From a virus: a stretch of DNA of 43,168 nucleotides. Of the stretch, positions 1,673 to 14,596 are shown piece after piece. The position numbers and the translations under genes were made by a program. The notes beneath the pieces were generated by a model. The model was given only the letters and a program-made list of their open reading frames with translations. It was not told the origin of the DNA and ran no database searches. The DNA lies in IMG/VR virus record IMGVR_UViG_3300001865_000266, positions 1-43,168 of that record. One strand, given 5' to 3'. Numbering within the stretch: position 1 is the first letter of the stretch; the number at the start of each line of letters is the position of its first letter.

Positions 1673-3958
1673 TTATTCTGGAGCAATGTAACCATTATCA
1701 ATAGTTACTTGAACTCCAGGTAAAACAAGATTTTTAATTACACTTTGTAAAATAGAAATATCTGTTCCCGTAGGTACTGTTATGGTTATCTGCTTTTTTT
1801 GCATGGCAAAATAACCACCAAATTTAGAAGCAATTCCAGTATAATTATTTGCTTTGCATTTGGATCCTGCTTTGGCAATATTTGGAATTGAATTTGAAAT
1901 ATCTATTTCAGTTTCATCGATATTTAATATTGCAGATACTGCTGTTTTTACTCCTGCGATTGTGATATCTGCTGAGATTAAACTAATTATGTTGGCCCTG
2001 TATGTGTTATCATCCATACCATTTCTTTGGATGCCAAACCAATCCCCATATCTTTCTAAATTAATGCCAGTAGCAAAGGGTAAAAATCGGCCTCGACTAT
2101 TTTTAAAAATATCTACTTCCATTTGTGCAAAATATTTTCCTATACTTTTATCAATCAGGATTCTTCCAGGATTTTCAGGATCATTATTTATTATATGATC
2201 TTCTGGAAGTCTTTCTCTTATTTCAGTACCATAATCAACTTGAGCTGTTGTAATCTCTTTATCACAAATATAATACGTTATTCCTTCAATATCGTCTGTG
2301 GCAATTGCTGTGATATGGTCGGTTGGCAATATAAATTCATCTAAGGTTTGATATTCTCCAGTTCCAGTAATTACAACATAATCAGATGTATTTAGATAAA
2401 ATCCTAATGTTTTGTTTTTAGGGATCTTAATAATTGTTTCAGCTGCTACAAGAGAAGGAGTTAATTTGATTCCTTCCCCTGCAAATTTGCCTTGAGTTGT
2501 AATCCTTGTAGTTGTTGGATTTGTATAAGCACGGCCATCTGGAAGGTATAAATCTGCAGGACTATACCCAAATTCACATAGTGCATATCCTATGCAGGTA
2601 GGATGATCAAAAACAATATTTATATCTTGAATTATATCCTCGGTCGGATATTCTGGTTCATTTGGATTATATAGTGGATTGTTTTCATCCCTATAATAAT
2701 CATAAGTAATTATGGAAGGTAAAACATTATTTACACCTGCACGATTAAGATTATCTTCTAAAACTTCTTTAAACCATTTATGTTGCATTTGAAGTGAAAC
2801 TCCGGTTGGGGCCGTTCCCATACCACGATAAATTTCGGGCATTATATAATCGCAAATAGGTGCCAGATCTTCGATGTATGCATCATGACTGGTAACAGGT
2901 AAAATATTAATTGAGAATATTTTATTATATTGATGTGCTAGATCTCTTACAGCTGTAGCAAAATCAATTAGATCCTGTCTATTTTGTAATCTTGCATCTA
3001 TTGTGGAAGTATCCCAAAATGAATCCGGGTATAAATAATCATTTAAAGATACACCATCTATTCTAGGATAGGCTATTAATATTTCTTCTAATCTAGACAA
3101 AAACCAGGATCTATAAGTTAAATCTGAAGGATCTGCATAAGCTGTTCCTCCTTCAGCAACGAATGGTAAAACACAGAAATGGAACTTTAAATCTGAATCT
3201 TCAATTTCGGCCAGATTAGTTTCAAGTTGAGATTTACTTAATGTGTTGTTGGCTTGAAGTTGATGATCCAAATACCATAGATCTGTGCAGCCACTTTCTT
3301 TTATCAGCGGATACATTTCAGGATGTGCAGTGGCAACATTATCTTCAACCATACCCCCACGAATATAATTTGAAGGTGGAGCTTCAACTTCTGTTACAGT
3401 GACACTGTTATCTTGTATTGAGGTTTGACCGGGGATCCATTCATAAGGACTTGGGGGTGTTGAACCTGTTACCAACATACCTCCTCCATAGACAAATGTA
3501 GTGGCCTGTGGAGTGTAACCAGTTGCAATAATAACGCTTAATTTGGTTCCAACTGTTACAGTACGAGTTAATGGGATAAAATTTTCACTGTTATCATAAT
3601 TGTAATAACCTGATCTTTCAAATCCAATTACATTTCCATCTGAATCTTTTTCAACTAAAAAGGCTTCTAAAGTTGTATCAGATCCCCCACCCGTGCCTAA
3701 TAAAATTGAGTATATTTCATTTGATAATACATCAAATGATTGAATTTCTATTCCTTCATCCAACTGACTTCCCGGAGTAGATATTAAAACACTTGCATCT
3801 CCAAAGATTTTAACATCAGGATCTATTGAAATAGTTGCACCATTATATTCTACCATTCCATCCAAGTTACCATTTACTCCAGGATCTGCAACATTTACAG
3901 GCAATAGATTAGATAGTTTATTACTAACAGTGTTATTAAGAGATATTCCCATTACCAT
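1673..3958 (-). CDS. Baseplate wedge-like protein (C-terminal P2 gpI-like) fused to N-terminal CBM-like and glycoside-hydrolase-like TIM-barrel domains
   Basis: C-term FATGINLERYGDWFGIQRNGMDDNTYRANI wedge motif; middle ADPS...RIDGVSLNDYLYP...SINILP...DYIMPEIY pattern resembling GHL10/DUF4015-like barrels; follows baseplate J gene. Confidence 0.65.
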   Translation of the reverse strand: MVMGISLNNTVSNKLSNLLPVNVADPGVNGNLDGMVEYNGATISIDPDVKIFGDASVLISTPGSQLDEGIEIQSFDVLSNEIYSILLGTGGGSDTTLEAFLVEKDSDGNVIGFERSGYYNYDNSENFIPLTRTVTVGTKLSVIIATGYTPQATTFVYGGGMLVTGSTPPSPYEWIPGQTSIQDNSVTVTEVEAPPSNYIRGGMVEDNVATAHPEMYPLIKESGCTDLWYLDHQLQANNTLSKSQLETNLAEIEDSDLKFHFCVLPFVAEGGTAYADPSDLTYRSWFLSRLEEILIAYPRIDGVSLNDYLYPDSFWDTSTIDARLQNRQDLIDFATAVRDLAHQYNKIFSINILPVTSHDAYIEDLAPICDYIMPEIYRGMGTAPTGVSLQMQHKWFKEVLEDNLNRAGVNNVLPSIITYDYYRDENNPLYNPNEPEYPTEDIIQDINIVFDHPTCIGYALCEFGYSPADLYLPDGRAYTNPTTTRITTQGKFAGEGIKLTPSLVAAETIIKIPKNKTLGFYLNTSDYVVITGTGEYQTLDEFILPTDHITAIATDDIEGITYYICDKEITTAQVDYGTEIRERLPEDHIINNDPENPGRILIDKSIGKYFAQMEVDIFKNSRGRFLPFATGINLERYGDWFGIQRNGMDDNTYRANIISLISADITIAGVKTAVSAILNIDETEIDISNSIPNIAKAGSKCKANNYTGIASKFGGYFAMQKKQITITVPTGTDISILQSVIKNLVLPGVQVTIDNGYIAPE

Positions 3959-3968
3959 CTTATCACCT

Positions 3969-5102
3969 TTAAACAGCTTCAGACAATGTTATTGTTCCAA
4001 GTTGAACAGCTTCATCTTCATCTACTAATACATTGCCACTCGGAGCGCTAATTGTATAATCTAAAAAAGTAGTTCCAAGTGAATTAACAACTATTGTTTG
4101 TAAAACAGAGAATACAATTCCCTCTCCACCATTAAGGCCAACATATTCCTGTCCATAAGTAGTTGTACCACCATTAAAGTAGCATTTAATGTCTGATTCC
4201 AAAATTGGTTTTATGGCACTCCATGTTTGGCCTGATTTTAAAGTTACAGTTATAGTTACATCTTGAGTAACAAAAGTAGGTTTACTCACTTGAATTGTAA
4301 TTCCACCTATTTTATGATCTTCCTGTGCAAATAATTCTGTTACAGCTGTGATAACCCCATCAGGAGTAGGTTTTTCAGTTCCATTCACATATAATACCAT
4401 GTCATGAGTAGGGATTAAAGGAGTATCCACAACAACTGAATCATGAACTCCAATTATATTCCCTGATTCTTTTTTATACCAACTCACACTACCCGTAATT
4501 TTTCCTTTTCCAGACTCCAAAATCCTTTCTCTGAAAGGAGCGTCTAGTTCTTGATCCATACCTCCAATAAAAGCTGAGGGATTTGTTACTTCTAAATCAA
4601 AAAGAGGATTATTAATCGTATCTATTTTTCCTGCTAATACGTTCCCATTGGTCCCGCCAATACTAGCTATTCCTATAAGGTTTACATTAGTATCCCCTGC
4701 TTCAAGGGTAACTTCATTTTCAGTCTCAAAAAATAAACTTCCATCGGAACTGCAGGTCAGAGATGTACCAGAATCAATTACAATGTCCTCAACTTTAGCT
4801 GTTGCTGTACTAATAACTAAAGGCCCTGTTGCTTGTACTGCCTGTTTACGTCTACAATTAACTAGGATACCTATCATGTCCAAATGAGCACCACTGGCAG
4901 TGTGGACATATCCTTCATTAAATAAATAATCTATTAAAAATCTTTGTTGATATGCTGAAATTCCTACACTTTCAAGCACATTTCTAGCTTCAGCACCTTC
5001 ATTAAAATCTGTGATTTTAGATTGGGCTGTCTGGAAATAGTTGATTAATGTATTTGTAATTGAGGCCTGATCCTCTAACACATAAACAGAATTATCTGCC
5101 AT
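3969..5102 (-). CDS. Baseplate J-like wedge protein
   Basis: TASGAHLDMIG...RKQAVQATG...GTNGNV...GGMDQELDAPFRERI pattern typical of gpJ/Mu gp47. Confidence 0.9.
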   Translation of the reverse strand: MADNSVYVLEDQASITNTLINYFQTAQSKITDFNEGAEARNVLESVGISAYQQRFLIDYLFNEGYVHTASGAHLDMIGILVNCRRKQAVQATGPLVISTATAKVEDIVIDSGTSLTCSSDGSLFFETENEVTLEAGDTNVNLIGIASIGGTNGNVLAGKIDTINNPLFDLEVTNPSAFIGGMDQELDAPFRERILESGKGKITGSVSWYKKESGNIIGVHDSVVVDTPLIPTHDMVLYVNGTEKPTPDGVITAVTELFAQEDHKIGGITIQVSKPTFVTQDVTITVTLKSGQTWSAIKPILESDIKCYFNGGTTTYGQEYVGLNGGEGIVFSVLQTIVVNSLGTTFLDYTISAPSGNVLVDEDEAVQLGTITLSEAV

Positions 5103-5112
5103 AATTTTCCTC

Positions 5113-5499
5113 CTATAAAGTTGATTTTGAAAAAACTAAATTATCCGTGCTTGATTCTCCAATTAATTTAACATCCACATCTCCAGAAAATCCTTGATTT
5201 GTAACATTGATATTAACTATACCAATATCTTCAACTCTAGGTTCTTGTAAAAGACATTCTGTTGTATATAACTGTATTAACTGTTCAGCTGTTTCTAAAT
5301 CAGTTGTACCAATAACGTTTATTGATTGATTACCATATTTTGAATATCCAAAAACAATTAATTCATCATACTTTGTCAATAATCTAGTTTTAATAGCTTG
5401 AAGTGCATTGTCTTTACCAGAAATTAACTTAAAATCTCCTTGGGCGTTAGCAGTCCATTCAGAATCAATATCTGTGCCGAAGTCAACATCATTTGGCAT
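5113..5499 (-). CDS. Baseplate gp25/W-like protein
   Basis: GDFKLISGKDNALQAIKTRL...YG...ECLLQEPRV pattern; start moved to ATG 5499, just after the upstream stop. Confidence 0.8.
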   Translation of the reverse strand: MPNDVDFGTDIDSEWTANAQGDFKLISGKDNALQAIKTRLLTKYDELIVFGYSKYGNQSINVIGTTDLETAEQLIQLYTTECLLQEPRVEDIGIVNINVTNQGFSGDVDVKLIGESSTDNLVFSKSTL

Positions 5500-5500
5500 A

Positions 5501-6196
5501 TTAACACTCCCCATAAATTTCATCACGAACTAAAATAAATACTAATGACGCTGAAATTGGATCTATGAAGTGACCTAAAATAGTAGTATAAAATTTATAT
5601 TGAATTTTAGAAACCCATGCTTTTTTTTCTGGATTTCTATCCTTTTTTAAAGTTACACCAGGATATTTTGAATTTTTTGTACTTTTTTCACTCATTTTTA
5701 ATCTACTTTTTTTTAAATGGCCAATGCCTTTTATTGCACTATTTTTAGAAATTTTATCCCTTGTTTCTAGAGATACTGGATGCCCTGATTTCAATTTGGA
5801 CATATTTTTACTAAACTCACTGGAACGTTTTGAACCATAGTTTGGATTGTCTTTTCCAAAACGTCCCCATAATGGATGATTGGGTCCAGATTCAAATCCT
5901 TCTCCGCCATTAGTTAAATTATAACCAATTTCAGGATTATTTGATTCATATTTAGAAATATATAATCTTTCTAATTGAAATAATACTTTTTCATCAGGAT
6001 TAGAATCCAGGATGTCCCATTTAAAATTTTCAAAACCATATTTTCGTAATGCTCTATGAAAATAAAAATTGGATCCATTATTCATTTCATTTTTGTGACG
6101 GCGTTTCCTCTCTTTTAATCCTTCAGTGGTTTTTCCAATGTAATATTTGCCATTGAGTTGATTCGTTACTTTATAAATTATATATTTAGTAACCAT
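5501..6196 (-). CDS. GIY-YIG homing endonuclease with NUMOD3-like and AP2-like DNA-binding domains
   Basis: IIYKVTNQLNGKYYIGKT...RH...LERLYISKY...GYN; HPLWGR and HPVSLETRDKIS NUMOD3-like motifs; C-terminal AP2-like segment. Confidence 0.9.
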   Translation of the reverse strand: MVTKYIIYKVTNQLNGKYYIGKTTEGLKERKRRHKNEMNNGSNFYFHRALRKYGFENFKWDILDSNPDEKVLFQLERLYISKYESNNPEIGYNLTNGGEGFESGPNHPLWGRFGKDNPNYGSKRSSEFSKNMSKLKSGHPVSLETRDKISKNSAIKGIGHLKKSRLKMSEKSTKNSKYPGVTLKKDRNPEKKAWVSKIQYKFYTTILGHFIDPISASLVFILVRDEIYGEC

Positions 6197-6207
6197 AATA
6201 AAACTCC

Positions 6208-6498
6208 TTAAAATTTACCTATAATAACCGGATTTCCACTATGCCCTCCAATAAAAGCAATTAAAACAGAATCTCCAACACTTAAATTTAAAGTTGAATC
6301 TGCCCCTGAAAAACAAGATTGCAATATTGGAACCCCCTCATCATTATATGTTCCCGAAACAGTTCCAACACTTGCTAGATTTCCATTAATAGCTGTAACT
6401 ACGGCTTTTATTGGAGGTTCACTCCAATTAAAATATTCTTTACAAAGAGTGTGAATTTCTTGTGATATTAATCCAGGAATATGTTTTTCTTCAGCCAT
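6208..6498 (-). CDS. Baseplate spike (gpV/gp5 OB-fold-like), short
   Basis: AVVTAING...VPIL...LSVGDSVLIAFIGGHSGNPVIIG; start moved to ATG 6498 (GGTGG SD, overlaps hub stop). Confidence 0.75.
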   Translation of the reverse strand: MAEEKHIPGLISQEIHTLCKEYFNWSEPPIKAVVTAINGNLASVGTVSGTYNDEGVPILQSCFSGADSTLNLSVGDSVLIAFIGGHSGNPVIIGKF

Positions 6499-8458
6499 GT
6501 TTCCACCAACTTGCAGCATGACAGGTTGAATCCCATACTCTCCATACCCCATTATATTTAATTTTTAAGTGAGCATGGCCCCCACTCCAACCTCCACATA
6601 ACCTTGCAGGTATTGTTAAATATACTAATTTAACTTCAAATCCTAATTTTTCAATATATGACTGTGCTAATTGTGATTGATCAACACAATTTCCTAGTTT
6701 ACTACTTAAAACCTGTGAATTAGTTTTTTTACTGTTTACATAATATTGGTATTTTATTGTATTCCAAAACCAGTCATAAAGACTCTGAAGATCTGTTACG
6801 CCACTTGGTAATCCTGCAACTGATGTTGCACATGTGGAATTTCCAGTAGCATTATTCTTGACTTGGCCAACAGCTGCATTTGTTGGGGTTGGCCCTGAAA
6901 CACGTTTTAAATATAAATTGCTTCCATCAATTTTTTTCTTTCCAGTGACCGCACAGAAATCATTGTCATTTTCAGAAGTCCATTCTCCTTCAGGAACCCC
7001 TTTGGGATTCCATTTCAAAGTTTTTCCAGAGGATGGATCTTTATTTTCAAAACAAGTTAAATAATTACGGTAAGAATATTTAGAACGTACTGAAGGTTTA
7101 GCTACTGCACATACTGTATCACTATCAGAAGAAGTACAACTTGTGGAATCATCATCATTTGGGGGAACATAAATCCAATTTGAAGGAGGAGCCGGTTTTC
7201 CATCAAGAAACTGTATTTCGGTTGTTATGTTGTTTGGTTCTTGTGTAATTTTAACTTCTTGGGTGTAATATGCTTTTAATTTATGATAACTCCATTTAGG
7301 AGGAACAAAAATCATCCATTCTCCCTTATATATATCTAATATATCTGGAACAGTTAAATTGCCTGTGAATATAGGTTTTCCACTCTCTTTATATAATTTA
7401 TCTGCTGCTTCTTTTGCTTCAGCTTTAGTAGTTATATTACTATCGTCTATTATGTCTCGGATATTTCCATATTTAATAACTAATTTAGTGTTTTTATAAT
7501 CATAAAGCAATTCTCCGTCTTTACCATAGACTACAACCCCAGTTATGATATCTGATGCATTATATTCTAAGCCATATTCTGATGCAGATTCTTCAGTTAT
7601 GAATACATATCCTTTCGTAGAGTTAGGTATTTTCCTTAAAATAGGGATTCCATCAGAATTTACAAAGAATTCAAGATTAGCTTCGAGATTAGTGCATTGT
7701 TGAATTATATCAATAGTTTTATTTGTGTCAATTATGATTTTATCATGAATAGTTGTTGTATTCATTATTCCATTAGTAGGCATCCCTTGTTGTCGAAGCA
7801 ATTCCTTAATAATATCTGAAACTTTACATTTGTAATATTTAAGTCTTTTTTTTCCAAACAACAATCGTGTATAATCTAAACAACTGTAAGAATAACCTTG
7901 ATCAGAATGAGATTCTTTAGGATCTGTTATCTGACCACCAAAGGGATGATGTTTTCCTATCACATTTACTCTTGACATTTCAGCATAATAGTTAGGACTT
8001 TTAAAGTCCGCCGTGTCGGCACTAAATAAGGTGTAAGTTAAAACTAAACTATAAAAGGGGGAGGTTTTCCCAGTGTATCCTTGAGCTTTATCTGTAACTT
8101 TGGATCTAGATGAACTTACATATACCTCACTTGTACCCAATGGGTTGCTTTTAGTTGTAGTCTGTTTTGTAGTTTCTTTACCTATTTTTCCAGATCCTAA
8201 AATCGGTATCGTTTTGGATTTTTTATGTTTATTATACCAAACTAACATCAATGTGTATCGGGTCCAGGAAACATAATCAACACGACGGGATGTAATGTAA
8301 ACGATTTTCGGTTTCCTATTATAATCGTCAATAAATTTGTTAGTACGATTAATCATGTCAATAAAAAATGATTTGGGTACTAAAAGATTATCATTGCTTA
8401 CATCTTTTTCCGTCAATCTAATAACTCCTTTAACTATCTGTTGTCCATTTATCTCCAA
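6491..8458 (-). CDS. Baseplate hub/tail protein with N-terminal pseudomurein-binding-like repeat and C-terminal Pei/transglutaminase-like Cys protease domain
   Basis: FIDMINRTNKFIDDYNRKPKIVYI repeat; hub-like middle; GNCVD...GGHAH...VWD catalytic triad. Confidence 0.75.
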   Translation of the reverse strand: MEINGQQIVKGVIRLTEKDVSNDNLLVPKSFFIDMINRTNKFIDDYNRKPKIVYITSRRVDYVSWTRYTLMLVWYNKHKKSKTIPILGSGKIGKETTKQTTTKSNPLGTSEVYVSSSRSKVTDKAQGYTGKTSPFYSLVLTYTLFSADTADFKSPNYYAEMSRVNVIGKHHPFGGQITDPKESHSDQGYSYSCLDYTRLLFGKKRLKYYKCKVSDIIKELLRQQGMPTNGIMNTTTIHDKIIIDTNKTIDIIQQCTNLEANLEFFVNSDGIPILRKIPNSTKGYVFITEESASEYGLEYNASDIITGVVVYGKDGELLYDYKNTKLVIKYGNIRDIIDDSNITTKAEAKEAADKLYKESGKPIFTGNLTVPDILDIYKGEWMIFVPPKWSYHKLKAYYTQEVKITQEPNNITTEIQFLDGKPAPPSNWIYVPPNDDDSTSCTSSDSDTVCAVAKPSVRSKYSYRNYLTCFENKDPSSGKTLKWNPKGVPEGEWTSENDNDFCAVTGKKKIDGSNLYLKRVSGPTPTNAAVGQVKNNATGNSTCATSVAGLPSGVTDLQSLYDWFWNTIKYQYYVNSKKTNSQVLSSKLGNCVDQSQLAQSYIEKLGFEVKLVYLTIPARLCGGWSGGHAHLKIKYNGVWRVWDSTCHAASWWKHG

Positions 8459-8864
8459 CTTTCATCTGTACTTTTGAATCTTTGATTTTGATGTTGTAAT
8501 CTATGAAATTTTTCCTGGTAACATTAAATGTAAAATCTTCTTGAAGTTTAATAGTTATAGTAAATCTTCCTTTTTTGTATTCAACAGGTTTAAAATCAAT
8601 AATATGATAAAATCCATTGTATTTGGCTTTACTATTACTAATAAGAGGAACTCGTTTTCCTTTTTTCCACAATGTATCGATTTTAGGATATTGGGAATCA
8701 TTAGCAAATGCACTGATTTCAAGTAAGCGGCCACCGTTTCCCTGATAACTTGTATGACTTCCACTTGCTCCGACAATCTGTGAAACTGGCCGCATTAATT
8801 GGGGGTCTAAACTGATGTTCGTAACAGGAATTGTAATATTATCAATTGTAACATAACCAGACAT
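8430..8864 (-). CDS. Tail/baseplate protein following tape measure (tube-initiator-like)
   Basis: Position after TMP; GGAGG SD; beta-rich 144 aa. Confidence 0.55.
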   Translation of the reverse strand: MSGYVTIDNITIPVTNISLDPQLMRPVSQIVGASGSHTSYQGNGGRLLEISAFANDSQYPKIDTLWKKGKRVPLISNSKAKYNGFYHIIDFKPVEYKKGRFTITIKLQEDFTFNVTRKNFIDYNIKIKDSKVQMKVGDKWTTDS

Positions 8865-8922
8865 AACGAACCTCCACTATTCATAAAAATATAAATAAAA
8901 AGTAATGACAAAAATAATAATC

Positions 8923-9402
8923 ATGAGGATAAATGTGGTTGCAGTCGTTTTGCTGCTATTAGTGATTGTAGCATTTTCAGGAGTGGGTTTTGCTACAAGT
9001 GTAAGTGACAAGGGAAGTAAGATAACTACTCCGTTGAACTATAATGCTGATTGTGATAATGAAAGGCATGTTTATAGTTGGGAAACAGTTTATTACAACA
9101 CTAATCATATGCAACTCAAAATGTTCATGAGGGAACAAAAAGTAACATCTGTTCGAGTAAATGGGAAATATAAAGATAAATGGGTTAATTGGAATAATCA
9201 GAGACATACTTATACAGTTAGTTGCACTAGAATAAATTCTAATCATTTAAAAATTGTCACAAAGGTATATAATAATGGGAAATATATTGGTGGGGATGTT
9301 CAATCATTAAAAACTAAACATTCAGTGTATTATACCTACAAACGCAATGTTAAACACAATATTAACTATTTTATAAAATATGGAGATAGATATTGGATGT
9401 GA
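8923..9402 (+). CDS. Secreted/surface basic protein on the opposite strand (moron-like)
   Basis: Signal peptide MRINVVAVVLLLLVIVAFSGVGFA; K/Y/N-rich; ATG 8923 preferred over 8905. Confidence 0.75.
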   Translation: MRINVVAVVLLLLVIVAFSGVGFATSVSDKGSKITTPLNYNADCDNERHVYSWETVYYNTNHMQLKMFMREQKVTSVRVNGKYKDKWVNWNNQRHTYTVSCTRINSNHLKIVTKVYNNGKYIGGDVQSLKTKHSVYYTYKRNVKHNINYFIKYGDRYWM

Positions 9403-9407
9403 ATTTT

Positions 9408-9563
9408 ATGGAAGAAAAAAAAATAAATAATGGATTTAAATGGTGGGAAATTCTTCTTTTAATGGTTATAGCAATTTATTTAGGATATTTAATAGTTGGA
9501 GTTATTGGTTCGGTTATAGGGATAATTATCGTTTCGATTATTTCATGGCGTAAAACTAAATAA
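9408..9563 (+). CDS. 51-aa membrane protein (not in ORF track)
   Basis: Translated by hand: MEEKKINNGFKWWEILLLMVIAIYLGYLIVGVIGSVIGIIIVSIISWRKTK. Confidence 0.65.
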   Translation: MEEKKINNGFKWWEILLLMVIAIYLGYLIVGVIGSVIGIIIVSIISWRKTK

Positions 9564-9569
9564 AAAGAT

Positions 9570-12053
9570 CTAAGCAGATCTTCCATTTATTATATTTTCT
9601 TGATTTAGCTGTTTAACCCATCCCATTAAATGATCGGCTGTCTCTTTATCTGCTACTTTTCCAATAGTAATGTTATAATTGTGTTCGTGTTTACTTGCTG
9701 TATTTGTGATACTTTTTGTAATTCCTTTTGTTGTACTGTTTAACATATCTCCGCCTGAAGCATTTGCATTATCTCCTCCACGAGCTCCACCAGTCATCCT
9801 ATTCACAATCGCATCTAATATTTCACCTGGTGAAGGTATACTCCAATGCAACCAATCAATGAACTGTGCAACCCTATTCAAAACATCTGCAGCTCCTGGA
9901 ATGCTCCAAAGTAGTTGTGTTATATAATCTCCAATCTTCTGAATTATATTTGGTATTGAAGGGATCTTCCAGATCAGGTCATGAATAAATGTAGCAATTC
10001 TTTGGATTATCTGTTGAACTGTTGGGATCTTCCAATTTAGCATTGGAATTTTAGATTTGAGCATGTTTATGATGTCTGTAACAGTAGGAAACTTGAAACG
10101 TGACATATCGAGCATTCCATTCTTACCAAATATATCATTACCTATGCTCTTGTTTCCACCAGTTCCAGCAGCACTCGCAGGTTTAGGCAGTAAGCCCCCA
10201 AGAAGTCCCCCTAATCCTCCACCTTGTAAAAAGTCAGGGGTCTTAAATGCGTTTCCTGTTAACCAATCTCTTGCACCAGCTAAACTAGGAATTTTAAGCC
10301 CACTAAATCCTCCACTTATATCTCCCCAGTTACTTTGTAACCCTTTTATAACATTAAGAGGGGCCAACGCCCCAGATAATGGGGAATCTTTAAGTGCTGA
10401 TCCAAATCCACTTATTCCTCCACCAATCCAACTTAATCCACTTCCTAATTTTCCATAATTTGAAAATTCTGTTTTCTCCTGATCAACCCATGATCCCCCA
10501 CCAAATTTACCTGTTGAAATTGTAGACATCAATAAAGGTAGAGGTAATCCTTTTCCAAATGCTGAAACTCCTCCAGCAATTGAACGTCCCATGTCACCAG
10601 TTCTACCAAATAAATCTGAACCAAAATCCATTGCGTTATATGCATCAGCTACAGCATAAGCTCCAGGTATAGCTACTGCAGCCGCATCTTGTAATGAAAA
10701 TTTTTTTGTTGGATTCGTTGGAGATCCAGGAGTTCCAGTTGTTCCTCCACAAACTGTTTTACTTGTAGTAATACATTCTTTAGGTGCACAAGGGGTTTTG
10801 TTTAATATGTTAAGTGCATCTGTTATTCCTGAGATTCCATCCTTAGCATTTTTGAGAAGAATATAAACTCCACCAAAGGCCATTACAGCAGCCACGGCCA
10901 AAGGGGCTACCAATAGAATATCTTTTATTGGACCGGGCAATGCTTGGAATCCATGAAGAATTCCTGCTAAAATTGGGAATGCTGCAGTACCAAAATCTTT
11001 TAAGATTGGAATTATTTCATATCCTACACCTGTAATAAATTGAGACCATAAATTGCTTAACTGAGCCATTATTCCTTGATAAGAATGTTTATAGGCCTCA
11101 TTTGCAGCTGCACCATTTTGAAGTGCAACGGTTTGAGTTAATAAATTACTTCTCTGTTCAGTAGTTAAGTTAGCCCAGTCTTTCATTGTGAGATTGTTCT
11201 GCTTAAGGACATCATTGAACTTATTAGTATCCACACCAGCAGTGGCTAGAGTCTTAACAAGTAAAGTGGGCTTGTTAATCATGTTGGTCCATGCTTCTGA
11301 AACTGTGTTAAAACCTGCTGGATCTCCAGGATATTTAATCATTGCAAGGGCACTCATGGCCTCTACAGAACTTTGCTGGATCTGCTTGTTTACTACACCC
11401 ACTCTTGAAAGATTACCTATTGCACTTATGATGTCTCCACGAGTTCGGGCCGTGTCTGATTGAATAGAATCAATCATTGAAGAATATTCAGCTTTGACAG
11501 CTTCCATTTCAGTTCCAGATCTACCAAGTGCAACTGTAAGTCTACCCCAATTCTGTTCAGATTGTTCAGCAGATTTAACACCCATATAAGCAATGACGCC
11601 TTCAGCTGCAACAATGGCTCCAGCACCTACGAGTAATCCTTGGCCTACTTGGGTCATTGTTAATCCAAGTTTATTGACAGCACCTTCAACACGGCCAACT
11701 TGGGGAACTGCAGCTGCCATCTTAGCATTTGCAACTTCCATATCAACCCCCATCTGAGATAAACGGCTGATATCCATGCCTCGCATAGCTGGTGTTAACC
11801 CACCTACAACAGCAGATTCAGCAGCCACGGCTTCTAGTTGAAATTGGTTTAAAGCCAAATTTGCCTTTGCCATGTTTTGCTCAGCAAGTGTCATCCCCTT
11901 CGATGTGTTGTTACCCATACCTACCATTGTTGCAGCACTTTGGGCTTCCATGGCACTCATGGCAGCTTGGGATTCTACAAGTGAGGCGTTGAGAGATGTG
12001 AATCCTCCACCTTCGTAGATAGACCTTATGTTGATAAGGAGTTCTTCTAGCAT
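9570..12053 (-). CDS. Tape measure protein
   Basis: Ala/Gly-rich helical protein, hydrophobic segments, 21-aa WxIP repeats, follows tail chaperone. Confidence 0.9.
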   Translation of the reverse strand: MLEELLINIRSIYEGGGFTSLNASLVESQAAMSAMEAQSAATMVGMGNNTSKGMTLAEQNMAKANLALNQFQLEAVAAESAVVGGLTPAMRGMDISRLSQMGVDMEVANAKMAAAVPQVGRVEGAVNKLGLTMTQVGQGLLVGAGAIVAAEGVIAYMGVKSAEQSEQNWGRLTVALGRSGTEMEAVKAEYSSMIDSIQSDTARTRGDIISAIGNLSRVGVVNKQIQQSSVEAMSALAMIKYPGDPAGFNTVSEAWTNMINKPTLLVKTLATAGVDTNKFNDVLKQNNLTMKDWANLTTEQRSNLLTQTVALQNGAAANEAYKHSYQGIMAQLSNLWSQFITGVGYEIIPILKDFGTAAFPILAGILHGFQALPGPIKDILLVAPLAVAAVMAFGGVYILLKNAKDGISGITDALNILNKTPCAPKECITTSKTVCGGTTGTPGSPTNPTKKFSLQDAAAVAIPGAYAVADAYNAMDFGSDLFGRTGDMGRSIAGGVSAFGKGLPLPLLMSTISTGKFGGGSWVDQEKTEFSNYGKLGSGLSWIGGGISGFGSALKDSPLSGALAPLNVIKGLQSNWGDISGGFSGLKIPSLAGARDWLTGNAFKTPDFLQGGGLGGLLGGLLPKPASAAGTGGNKSIGNDIFGKNGMLDMSRFKFPTVTDIINMLKSKIPMLNWKIPTVQQIIQRIATFIHDLIWKIPSIPNIIQKIGDYITQLLWSIPGAADVLNRVAQFIDWLHWSIPSPGEILDAIVNRMTGGARGGDNANASGGDMLNSTTKGITKSITNTASKHEHNYNITIGKVADKETADHLMGWVKQLNQENIINGRSA

Positions 12054-12084
12054 TGATAATCAGTCCTGGTAAAAATAAAAAAAT

Positions 12085-12272
12085 TTAATTTGGATTTGGA
12101 TTTTCTCGGTCTAAAATATCTTTATAGACATTTTCCAAGATACTTAAAAAAATAATTTGAACATCGGTCAGATCACTGATTTTGTCTGTTAAATGGTATT
12201 TTTGACTTTTAATTAACATGATAAGCCATGCCCATTTACCATCCTCTTCAGGATCTAACCATTGCCGAAAAG
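12085..12272 (-). other. Putative -1 frameshift extension of tail assembly chaperone (G/GT-like)
   Basis: Open -1 frame (TFRQWLDPEEDGKWAWL...PNPN) begins just before the chaperone TAG; candidate slip CTT TTC at 12267..12272. Confidence 0.65.
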
Positions 12273-12758
12273 TTCTTTAATGGCCTTAGTTTCAAATCTA
12301 TCTTCAAACTCTCCACTTATAAATCTTATTTCTTCGGAAATTGCAGCTGTAGCTCCATCTGATACTTTCCTTATATCTTCAAGAGGGATCTTCACACCAT
12401 CAGTATTCTGAACCCATCCTGCTTCACATACCATTTCGATGAAGTTTCGCTGAGCTACTTTTTTCCCACGACCATTTGTGTTTTTCTTACTTATGGCCTT
12501 CTCAATACGGTTACGATCCATTCGAGATAAAGGTTTAATATACACAGGCATTTTCATTTTCTGCTGAGTTTTAAGGTCAAAGAAAACTATTTCACGTTTT
12601 AAGACAGAATCTTTTCCTTCGACAACCAACCTTTCAAAATCAAACTCATCGAGTTCTTCTAAGATTTCATCTTCATCGATATCTTCATCAAAATCGTTTT
12701 CATCGATATCATCAGAAGGTTCTTTGTACATTTTAGCTTCATCATAATCTTCAGGCAT
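12255..12758 (-). CDS. Tail assembly chaperone
   Basis: Between tube and TMP; acidic N-terminus; YIKPLSRMDRNRIE pattern. Confidence 0.8.
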   Translation of the reverse strand: MPEDYDEAKMYKEPSDDIDENDFDEDIDEDEILEELDEFDFERLVVEGKDSVLKREIVFFDLKTQQKMKMPVYIKPLSRMDRNRIEKAISKKNTNGRGKKVAQRNFIEMVCEAGWVQNTDGVKIPLEDIRKVSDGATAAISEEIRFISGEFEDRFETKAIKELFGNG

Positions 12759-12794
12759 CTCATATCAACTCCCATAAAATAAAAATTGGAGATT

Positions 12795-13175
12795 TTAACT
12801 CCATTTCCTAACACGTTTAAGTACAGTAAATCCAATTGTTTCACTGTCAAGTTTACCAGGACTAACATCACCAGAATATTTGGTCATGTAACCACCAGTA
12901 CAGGTGTCGGTGAATTGTTTACCATTCCTAGTTCCAGTTATAACAATAGGAATATTAGATTTGAGATTTGCTGCAAGATTCTTTTCAAAGTTAGGATCAT
13001 AGGTAACAGTTCTATCAAAGGATAGATCCCACTGTTCTGTTTCATCTTCAGCTATATCGATACCATCAAAGTGTTTGACGATATCGTTATCTTTTTTCAG
13101 GTCGTAGCTGTACTTTTTACATCGTGCAACCTTTATTCCATTCCAATGAATTGTCACATTTCTACTTGCTGCCAT
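12795..13175 (-). CDS. Tail tube protein
   Basis: 126 aa directly after sheath; beta-rich tube-like pattern. Confidence 0.8.
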   Translation of the reverse strand: MAASRNVTIHWNGIKVARCKKYSYDLKKDNDIVKHFDGIDIAEDETEQWDLSFDRTVTYDPNFEKNLAANLKSNIPIVITGTRNGKQFTDTCTGGYMTKYSGDVSPGKLDSETIGFTVLKRVRKWS

Positions 13176-13177
13176 TT

Positions 13178-14596
13178 TTAGGCCTCCATTGAAAGTTTTA
13201 TCCTGTAATTAATGGCCTTGAGAATGCCTGGAATTATAAACTCGAAATCAACATTAGCTATTTCGCTGTTCTGTGTATCTGGAGTGATAGCTACAGGGAT
13301 ATCCTTAACAATGTTTTGATTGATAAGGTCCTGTTTCCTGTTTTCCAGTTCTCCAAGGGCACTTTCTATGCTTGTACTAATTCCAACTCTACCTTTCCAA
13401 TCATCCAGGTTAAGATATTTAATACAGAAATTCCTGATTTTTGTAGCGTAAAGTTCACTTGTTGGAACTTTTTTACCCTGGTCATCAACATCCCTTATAG
13501 CGGTTACACTTGAAACAATACCATAATCATTGTTTTCATGAGTCATGAGTTTAAGAAGTGTAACTCCACCATTAACTAAAGCGTATCCATCGTCAGTAGC
13601 GCCAAATTTAAAAGTAGGTGTAATAGAAGTGACATCTAAAATTTTCTTATTTGTAGAACTTTCATTCACAGCTAACCCTGCTTCATATGCTACCATTCGG
13701 GCAACAAATTCAGATTCAGATAGTGAATCATTATCAACATTTCCTTTCTGGTAGAAATAGAACATGTTATCTGAGTCAGTTGTTCCAACGTTTGTGAGAG
13801 TAGTTGCAACATTGTTAGATTCTGCAAGAGCGAAAGCCCCTATAGCTGGTGTGGCCAGTGCAAATTTACTGTCAAGCCATGCCTTTAATGTTGGAAGGTA
13901 TGTTGGATCTACAGTGTCAGTTAAAATTAAGTAATCAAAACTTTCATTCAAAACAGTTGCTAAAGCATTTGTTATGTCTGTTGTGGTTGGTGAAGCTGTT
14001 TCAGTTCCTCCAGCTAAAGCTGTATCAGTAACTGTGGCTAATGTTCTGGCAAGTTCTGTTGATGTTCCACTAGCAACAAGATAATTATCACTAGCATTAA
14101 TCTTATTCATGATGTCAGTTGTATTTGCACAATTGTCTATCTGGTCAACAATTACATCATTTAATTTAATTGTGACTTTCTGTCCACTAATTGTTCCTGC
14201 ACCTATGGAAATCTTTAAACCTCCACTTGCACCATTTGCCCAAGGACCTCCACTAACTGCAGTTACATGAAGTCCAACAGCTGAACTTGCATCTAGTAAT
14301 GTTGCAGAAGCTTTGACTGTTGTTCCTGTTTTAACACAAATACAGTCAGTTGCACCGTAGTTTTCATTTTCAAGGTCCTGTTTAAAGGTATAAACAATTA
14401 TGTTTGTACCACTGTAACTGGCACTTGCACCCATACCTTGCAATGCATCTGAAGCACTTTTAAAGAAGTATGGTTTATTTGCATCTCCTCTTTCAAAGTT
14501 TCCTATAATGCATACACGGCCAGCTGTTCCGAAGGTTCTGGATACATCACCTTTTACAATCTGGGCACTTGATCCAGGTATAACAATATTTCCCAT
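13178..14596 (-). CDS. Contractile tail sheath protein
   Basis: IVIPG...GNFERGDANKP...LAGGT...LVNGGVT pattern; 472 aa. Confidence 0.9.
   Translation of the reverse strand: MGNIVIPGSSAQIVKGDVSRTFGTAGRVCIIGNFERGDANKPYFFKSASDALQGMGASASYSGTNIIVYTFKQDLENENYGATDCICVKTGTTVKASATLLDASSAVGLHVTAVSGGPWANGASGGLKISIGAGTISGQKVTIKLNDVIVDQIDNCANTTDIMNKINASDNYLVASGTSTELARTLATVTDTALAGGTETASPTTTDITNALATVLNESFDYLILTDTVDPTYLPTLKAWLDSKFALATPAIGAFALAESNNVATTLTNVGTTDSDNMFYFYQKGNVDNDSLSESEFVARMVAYEAGLAVNESSTNKKILDVTSITPTFKFGATDDGYALVNGGVTLLKLMTHENNDYGIVSSVTAIRDVDDQGKKVPTSELYATKIRNFCIKYLNLDDWKGRVGISTSIESALGELENRKQDLINQNIVKDIPVAITPDTQNSEIANVDFEFIIPGILKAINYRIKLSMEA

Follow-up and report, generated by a model that had tools for sequence, protein, structure and literature searches.

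A GHL10-like barrel fused to a baseplate wedge protein in a methanogen provirus: a candidate pseudomurein glycan hydrolase

The P0001 locus

The window examined here is the entire 43,168-bp provirus record IMGVR_UViG_3300001865_000266 of IMG/VR, which has a G+C content of about 33%. A single uninterrupted open reading frame (ORF) on its minus strand (1673..3958, read from 3958 to 1673) encodes a 761 amino acid protein, P0001, that comprises a carbohydrate-binding module (CBM)-like domain, a GHL10-like barrel, a beta-sandwich and a C-terminal baseplate wedge module. The sequence AGGTGA, which serves as the ribosome binding site (RBS) signal, is located 4 nucleotides 5' of the ATG at position 3958, and this ATG lies 10 nucleotides past the stop codon of a Baseplate_J gene. 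An initial annotation, made from the sequence alone, had proposed a CBM-like N-terminal domain, a GHL10/DUF4015-like barrel and a gpI-like wedge within this one ORF. That architecture is fully supported by AlphaFold2 (AF2), hhalign, the ESM Atlas, PHROG and PDB, and the motifs then quoted are all present: YADP (275-277), IDGVSLNDYLYP (300-311), FSINILP (348-354) and CDYIMPEIY (369-377).

Fold and family of the barrel

The barrel occupies residues ~195-475 (2534..3376, minus strand), as delimited with AF2, Foldseek, VIA and hhalign. An exhaustive phmmer search with residues 180-500 against 1.8 billion representative proteins yielded 33 relatives. Most of these are stand-alone proteins of ~270-290 amino acids, and one of them, P0032, belongs to GHL10 proper (Pfam E 2.7e-52). 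When AF2 was supplied with alignment A1, which holds 27 barrel sequences at a mean column identity of 18%, it returned an eight-stranded (β/α)8 barrel with a predicted local distance difference test score (pLDDT) of 84 and a predicted template modelling score (pTM) of 0.84.

The best solved match to this model is the GHL10 domain of Cwp19 from C. difficile (Foldseek E 1.8e-10). An exhaustive VIA scan also ranks Cwp19 first (Z 23.6, root-mean-square deviation 3.6 Å, 264 residues), followed by BpsB/PgaB (GH153, Z 22.7) and then by GH164, GH18 (including the cortex-lytic SleL), GH42 and GH5. The structural neighbours are chiefly enzymes acting on N-acetylhexosamine (HexNAc) polymers, namely GH153, GH18 and SleL. 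Sequence profiles lead to the same place. The A1 profile finds Cwp19 from sequence alone (E 8.6e-8), and hhalign against five true GHL10 proteins gives a probability of 98% (E 1.8e-13, 223 columns). Given this score and the E of 1.7e-87 for the barrel against its own family, these relationships are well beyond chance. The ESM Atlas independently points to DUF4015, GHL10 and GH18 for P0001.

Two defining features of GHL10 are nevertheless missing. P0001 fails to match the Pfam GHL10 model, which scores true GHL10 proteins at 1e-52 to 1e-68 and with which only 2 of the 27 relatives reach E ~1e-4, and the NPYR/Arg132 position is not kept. Membership in PF02638 was therefore rejected, and on the basis of its sequence and its model we assign the barrel to a separate, divergent family that is sister to PF02638 in the GHL10 superfamily.

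A GH18 chitinase-like identity was also rejected: the β4 segment IDGVSLNDYLYP lacks DxxDxDxE, there is no D-x-E, and GH18 profiles match at E 0.016 or worse. A sequence search of PDB with P0001 on its own gave nothing. Pfam offers a Pyocin_S match on P0001 that misses the cut-off (E 0.024) and was set aside as noise. The barrel is covered by no PHROG, and PF13200 (DUF4015) has no match in the window. A metagenome scan with alignment A3 recovered only bacterial GHL10 proteins (L003-L015) that fall outside the barrel family, and these were used as a GHL10 reference. Word-indexed searches for homologues of similar length, made with whole P0001 and with residues 500-761, returned only P0001 itself, and tblastn against 50,697 phage records returned nothing.

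Among the stand-alone barrels, P0005-P0030 are proteins of ~270 amino acids that start directly at β1 (M-x-I-R-G-L-Y) and carry a conserved basic tail (R...N-R). The Logan/ENA contigs that encode them reach 38 kb in length.

Putative active site

Two short segments at the ends of barrel strands define the putative active site. The first, N306-D307-Y308 (3035..3043, minus strand), lies at the C-terminal end of β4. By hhalign and hidden Markov model alignment, GVSLNDYLYP of P0001 falls on GITFDDYFYP of GHL10 (β4 motif DG[IV]xFDDYFYP), which places D307 on D196 of Cwp19. The second, E375-I376-Y377 (2828..2836, minus strand), ends β6 and lies on the Q-x-Y of GHL10 (Q295/Y297 in Cwp19). Here DYIMPEIY aligns column for column with DYIIPQVY by hhalign, with Glu replacing Gln.

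D196 is the proposed catalytic residue of Cwp19 and has been equated with D466 of E. coli PgaB (PMC5765458). The corresponding residue of Bordetella PgaB, D474, is the assigned catalytic acid, and both D474N and D474A abolish hydrolysis of deacetylated poly-N-acetylglucosamine (dPNAG) (PMC5933820). D307 is invariant in 27 of 27 relatives despite the low identity of the alignment as a whole. It is therefore the putative catalytic aspartate of the barrel, intact and strongly conserved as judged from the alignments. The initial annotation had called for a TIM barrel with catalytic acids, and a glycoside-hydrolase-like fold with an invariant carboxylate at the catalytic position is what was found.

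One alternative, which we consider unlikely, is that the barrel is inert and, jointly with the CBM, binds the receptor in the manner of a lectin, having been retained only for adhesion to wall glycan. Inactive TIM-barrel lectins exist, and GH18-like chitinase-like proteins are among the matches. P0001 also has Asn rather than Asp at position 306, deviates at conserved aromatic positions (M203, C461) and lacks a second clearly conserved carboxylate on β7. However, D307 does not vary in a family whose members are very divergent, and the E-x-Y of β6 is intact in P0001. N306, the counterpart of the buried D195 of Cwp19, is common to the Methanobacterium protein P0003 and the related viral contig L001, and its site corresponds to the Asn of the N-E pair of clan GH-A (PMC5765458). 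The barrel family has no conserved β7 acid, and the same is true of GHL10 and GH153, which are active without one (PMC5765458, PMC5933820).

Domains flanking the barrel

The N-terminal domain (residues ~14-180; 3419..3919, minus strand) resembles a CBM4_9 beta-sandwich in comparisons by the Atlas and by phmmer. An Atlas structure search matches it to CBM_4_9 clusters with a template modelling score of 0.79. Within a 38-sequence set, phmmer aligns P0001 16-110 with P0019 641-737 (independent E 6e-8), a region that overlaps the Pfam CBM_4_9 call on P0019. Pfam gives no CBM_4_9 (PF02018) match on P0001 itself.

A second beta-sandwich (residues ~490-570; 2249..2491, minus strand) separates the barrel from the wedge module. 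It is shared with P0037, a wedge relative described below, and is collinear with P0004. P0004 has Ig-like domains and is encoded by a metagenome-assembled genome of Methanobacterium paludis; its similarity runs through residues 153-570 of P0001 (33% identity, E 3e-64). Two related viral contigs, L001 and L002, carry a CHB_HEX_C_1 domain at the position of this sandwich.

The wedge module and the reality of the fusion

Residues ~572-761 (1676..2245, minus strand) form a baseplate 'wedge 1' (gpI/gp7-like) module, identified by sequence matches to PHROG and PDB. Within it, residues ~604-690 correspond to the N-terminal portion of several PHROGs annotated as 'baseplate protein' (E 1e-8; phrog_1160). 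In the extended wedge alignment, A5, all seven members match baseplate PHROGs (best E 3.8e-14). Searched against PDB, the A5 profile finds Wedge protein 1 (gp024; 9ndy_J) at E 3.7e-8, TmpF (9euf_H) at 2.7e-6, Phi92_gp146 at 9.5e-6 and two more 'Wedge 1' proteins. Because PHROG profiles and solved wedge chains both match, the gpI-like assignment is sound, and we infer that P0001 is present in the baseplate.

Shorter relatives of 206-294 amino acids are 51-69% identical to residues 585-761 of P0001 (alignment A4). P0038-P0040 (206-222 amino acids) consist of the wedge alone, and P0037 (294 amino acids) consists of sandwich plus wedge. P0037, from an 18-kb JGI contig, is the closest wedge relative, being 64% identical to P0001 484-758 without a gap and lacking both CBM and barrel. 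Its first 12 residues (MTLGIAINSVVS) resemble the start of P0001 (MVMGISLNNTVS), a pattern that a clean loss or gain of residues ~18-483 would leave. The likeness of the two peptides hints at such a removal or addition of domains, over a stretch too short for a test.

A search with the wedge alignment led to the related viral contigs L001 and L002. None had been found with P0001, Baseplate_J, A2 or A3 as queries; related genome contigs were likewise not found with P0004 or A2, nor related metagenome contigs with P0037. The Baseplate_J of L001 is 60% identical to that of the window, and the next gene encodes a 567 amino acid protein with barrel, CHB_HEX_C_1 and wedge in one frame and no internal stops. 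The corresponding wedge protein of L002 (300 amino acids) contains CHB_HEX_C_1 and wedge only, and is preceded by a separate gene for a 782 amino acid protein with PKD domains.

Short relatives such as P0037-P0040, and an extra module that is a separate gene in L002, are what one would expect if the long ORF were an assembly or sequencing artefact, in which a lost stop or a frameshift has joined a glycosidase gene to a short wedge gene. We regard this explanation as extremely improbable. The same protein, at 759-761 amino acids, is found in a public protein collection on two contigs, of which one spans 393 kb. The alignment of P0001 with P0037 is ungapped across the sandwich-wedge junction, and the junction contains neither an internal start nor an RBS signal. 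In addition, L001 independently encodes an in-frame barrel-sandwich-wedge protein, and on this comparison of sequences the barrel-wedge fusion is real. The concern of the initial annotation that homologous wedges might never carry the domain does not hold, since the L001 wedge bears the same kind of barrel.

Two further observations concern the related viruses. In L002, the gene for the 782 amino acid PKD/Ig-like protein (7336-9684, plus strand) separates Baseplate_J from the wedge gene as an insertion, and a 758 amino acid PMBR + Pei (C71) + Big_3_5 protein (11812-14088, plus strand) is encoded a few genes downstream. L002 has thus filled this variable site in another way. In L001, the hub protein (4794-7202, plus strand) has at its N-terminus (residues ~110-213) a second, more divergent piece of the barrel family (LAPLCDYLMPMLY; hidden Markov model E 8e-9, hhalign 93.5%), as well as a weak GH25 match where the hub of the window has its PMBR repeat. 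The hub and the wedge of L001 may both carry glycosidase-like domains.

Barrel phylogeny and cellular relatives

A maximum-likelihood tree of the barrels, which is unrooted and has P0032 and P0028 on long branches, groups the barrel of the window with P0004 and P0003 (support 99/95) and the barrel of L001 with P0024 (support 100/99). A single clade made up of multi-domain proteins (98/93) contains the two groups. Since the two wedge-fused barrels fall in separate groups, they are not sisters. The presence of non-sister barrels on closely related baseplates fits either cassette exchange or two separate captures.

The nearest relatives of the window's barrel are P0004 and P0014, both from Methanobacterium, and P0003, which is of a secreted type, so the link to methanogen surface proteins drawn in the initial annotation holds. 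P0003 is the closest (41% identical, 283 amino acids), and its N-terminal signal-peptide-like segment suggests that it is a secreted cellular enzyme. The Atlas also contains a cluster from Methanobacteriota in which PMBR, a transglutaminase domain and DUF4015 occur together, which serves as a lead only.

Gene neighbourhood and host

The same-strand neighbours of P0001 form a contractile-tail baseplate module of the PBSX/XkdQ-T type, as assigned with Pfam and PHROG. Directly upstream is the Baseplate_J (gp6-like) gene (3969..5102, minus strand; Pfam E 2e-24, PHROG 6e-49), which is in turn preceded by a sheath initiator gene (5113-5526, minus strand; Pfam/PHROG). The order sheath initiator, Baseplate_J, wedge is identical in L001 and L002. 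Further upstream, a hub protein gene (6491..8458, minus strand) encodes a PMBR repeat, a YQBQ-like hub domain and a Pei-like/transglutaminase peptidase. The virus is a myovirus-type provirus of a methanogen, and because the hub carries pseudomurein-specific domains (PMBR, Pei-like), its host is taken to be a pseudomurein methanogen. The Pei-like peptidase of the hub is likely to be a partner activity on the same baseplate as the barrel.

A GIY-YIG homing endonuclease gene (5501-6196, minus strand; PHROG E 1.6e-33, Pfam GIY-YIG) lies within the baseplate operon, with the hub/XkdR-like genes on one side and the sheath initiator on the other, and its end overlaps the start of the sheath initiator ORF. 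Neither L001 nor L002 has an ORF of similar size at this position. Past the wedge gene there are three small minus-strand ORFs (1418-1648, 943-1425 and 468-941; 76, 160 and 157 amino acids) that neither PHROG nor Pfam matches. The wedge gene is succeeded by ORFs comparable in size and order in L001 (74, 182 and 161 amino acids) and L002 (79, 178 and 152 amino acids). There is no large tail-fibre gene between the wedge gene and the end of the window.

Proposed function

We propose that the barrel is a glycan-cleaving enzyme that uses D307 and acts on the pseudomurein glycan together with the Pei-like peptidase of the hub, a proposal to which we give somewhat less than an even chance. The C-terminal wedge module would anchor P0001 beside Baseplate_J as a structural wedge protein, and the N-terminal 570 residues would display the CBM4_9-like domain, the barrel and the beta-sandwich toward the host surface. 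D307 would be the single catalytic acid, with E375 and Y377 shaping the -1 site, in a mechanism like that proposed for Cwp19 and shown by mutagenesis for PgaB (GH153). The likeliest substrate would be the HexNAc-containing glycan strand of the host pseudomurein, which would be cut locally at adsorption or entry, alongside the action of the hub peptidase. Support for an activity on wall glycan comes from Cwp19, the peptidoglycan-cleaving member of GHL10, which is a peptidoglycan lytic transglycosylase (PMC6016235).

Several observations weigh against this proposal. P0001 has no Pfam GHL10 or DUF4015 match even at E<=1. In GHL10, Trp127 and Arg132 lie in the segment H-A-W-x-N-P-Y-R that follows β3; the aligned segment of P0001 is KFHFCVLPFV, which has no equivalent Arg. 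The β6 residue at the position of E375 varies between E, Q and M within the family (19 E and 5 Q among 27). The activity of every member of the barrel family is a prediction from sequence, and the mechanism of Cwp19 itself is unsettled. Pseudomurein is a lysozyme-resistant β-1,3 glycan of N-acetylglucosamine (GlcNAc) and N-acetyl-talosaminuronic acid (PMC2989375, PMC12596118), and because of these β-1,3 links and the talosaminuronic acid, a muramidase-type site is not simply transferable to it (PMC2989375). As for the wedge, the close relatives P0037-P0040 have no barrel, which indicates that the barrel is dispensable for baseplate assembly. Moreover, the conserved module is C-terminal here (~585-760 of 761) versus residues ~20-137 in the PDB chains. 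Its position is therefore reversed, and baseplate geometry cannot be read across from the solved structures. The AF2 model of residues 484-761 (pLDDT 50) was unusable and was kept out of the fold searches.

Perhaps the barrel is an active depolymerase whose substrate is another surface glycan, such as a wall heteropolysaccharide, capsule or exopolysaccharide, in the manner of the receptor-destroying enzymes of phage tailspikes. TIM-barrel glycosidases are common on phage tail proteins, including GH5 and hexosaminidase-type proteins in BFVD, and flanking CBM and beta-sandwich domains are typical of polysaccharide-active enzymes. Furthermore, the module is swapped among related viruses, as host-range cassettes are, and PgaB, which ranks second among the structural matches, hydrolyses an exopolysaccharide. 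Against these points, pseudomurein is the exposed wall polymer of Methanobacterium-type hosts, which have no S-layer, and this same baseplate bears pseudomurein-specific modules (PMBR, Pei-like). The GHL10 member shown to cut a polymer of the cell wall has the wall itself as its target (PMC6016235). We therefore view a depolymerase of this kind as a rather unlikely alternative, and a pseudomurein glycan hydrolase activity remains plausible.

The proposal can be extended to the barrel family as a whole (P0001, L001 and the Methanobacterium proteins P0003, P0004 and P0014). Tentatively, this family might contain the missing cleavers of pseudomurein glycan strands, which cells would use for wall remodelling and which methanogen viruses would have captured at least twice onto a wedge protein of the baseplate, to serve in entry. 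We hold this broader idea with less confidence than the proposal for P0001.

The only lysins of pseudomurein described in the literature searched are the Pei endoisopeptidases, lysozyme being ineffective (PMC2989375, PMC12596118). No described pseudomurein glycanase was found in that literature, the coverage of which is incomplete and so is no proof that none exists. Wall- and glycan-cutting domains on phage tails are already known, and TIM-barrel glycosidases are frequent among the tail proteins in BFVD. What is new here is the enzyme family, which neither PHROG nor Pfam reaches, its N-terminal site on a wedge 1 protein and the archaeal pseudomurein host. The P0001 barrel is thus a candidate that can be tested as the first enzyme to cleave pseudomurein in its sugar backbone, and the clear putative catalytic residue of this defined candidate makes the glycan-strand gap directly testable. 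If active, it would provide a second tool to lyse Methanobacteriales, for use in preparing protoplasts, in DNA extraction or as an anti-methanogen agent, and its cellular relatives would be flagged as pseudomurein autolysins. With enzyme activity as a prediction, the locus also indicates that archaeal tailed viruses use the phage-like strategy of placing a wall enzyme on the baseplate, and that they exchange it as a cassette.

Comparison with known systems

Cwp19 (GHL10, PF02638; PDB 5OQ2/5OQ3) is the best match to the barrel in both structure and sequence profile. The two share the (β/α)8 barrel, Y-x-D/N-P on β3, DG[IV]xx[DN]DYxYP with the proposed catalytic Asp on β4, D-Y-I-x-P-[QE]-x-Y on β6 and the absence of a catalytic Glu on β7. 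Both are also fused to wall- or carbohydrate-binding modules, and Cwp19 cleaves a murein-type wall glycan. However, their identity is only ~14%, and P0001 is under the Pfam GHL10 threshold, lacks Arg132/NPYR and has Glu for Gln on β6. Cwp19 is a cellular, S-layer-anchored autolysin, whereas P0001 is predicted to be a viral baseplate component that acts on an archaeon with a pseudomurein wall.

PgaB/BpsB's C-terminal domain (GH153; PDB 6AU1, 4P7Q) is the second-best fold match. Like P0001, it has a single Asp ending β4 at the position of D307, which is catalytic in PgaB, and its substrate is a HexNAc polymer. Unlike P0001, PgaB is periplasmic, processes an exopolysaccharide with β-1,6 links (dPNAG) and carries an H-D rather than an N-D pair. 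Sequence similarity between the two is undetectable.

The wedge 1 proteins (P2 gpI/T4 gp7-like; 9NDY_J gp024, 9EUF TmpF and Phi92_gp146) share with P0001 the core Y-G-x-W-F-G-I-x-R and T-Y-R-A-x-I, a gene position right after Baseplate_J and variable extensions with host-interaction domains. The solved proteins have the module toward the N-terminus and their extensions on its C-terminal side, whereas in P0001 a 570 amino acid extension precedes a C-terminal module.

The virion peptidoglycan hydrolases and tail depolymerases of phages, such as the T4 gp5 lysozyme and the GH5 and hexosaminidase tail proteins of BFVD, follow the same logic of local digestion at entry that is proposed for P0001. 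They differ from it in enzyme family, in host, which is an archaeon here, and in site, which is the wedge here rather than a spike or fibre.

Finally, PeiW and PeiP (Peptidase_C71) are Cys-His-Asp peptidases that cut the peptide cross-link, whereas the P0001 barrel is of the glycosidase type and has no similarity to them. They are nevertheless virus-encoded and aimed at pseudomurein, the polymer that P0001 is predicted to attack, and a Pei-like domain is located on the hub of this same baseplate.

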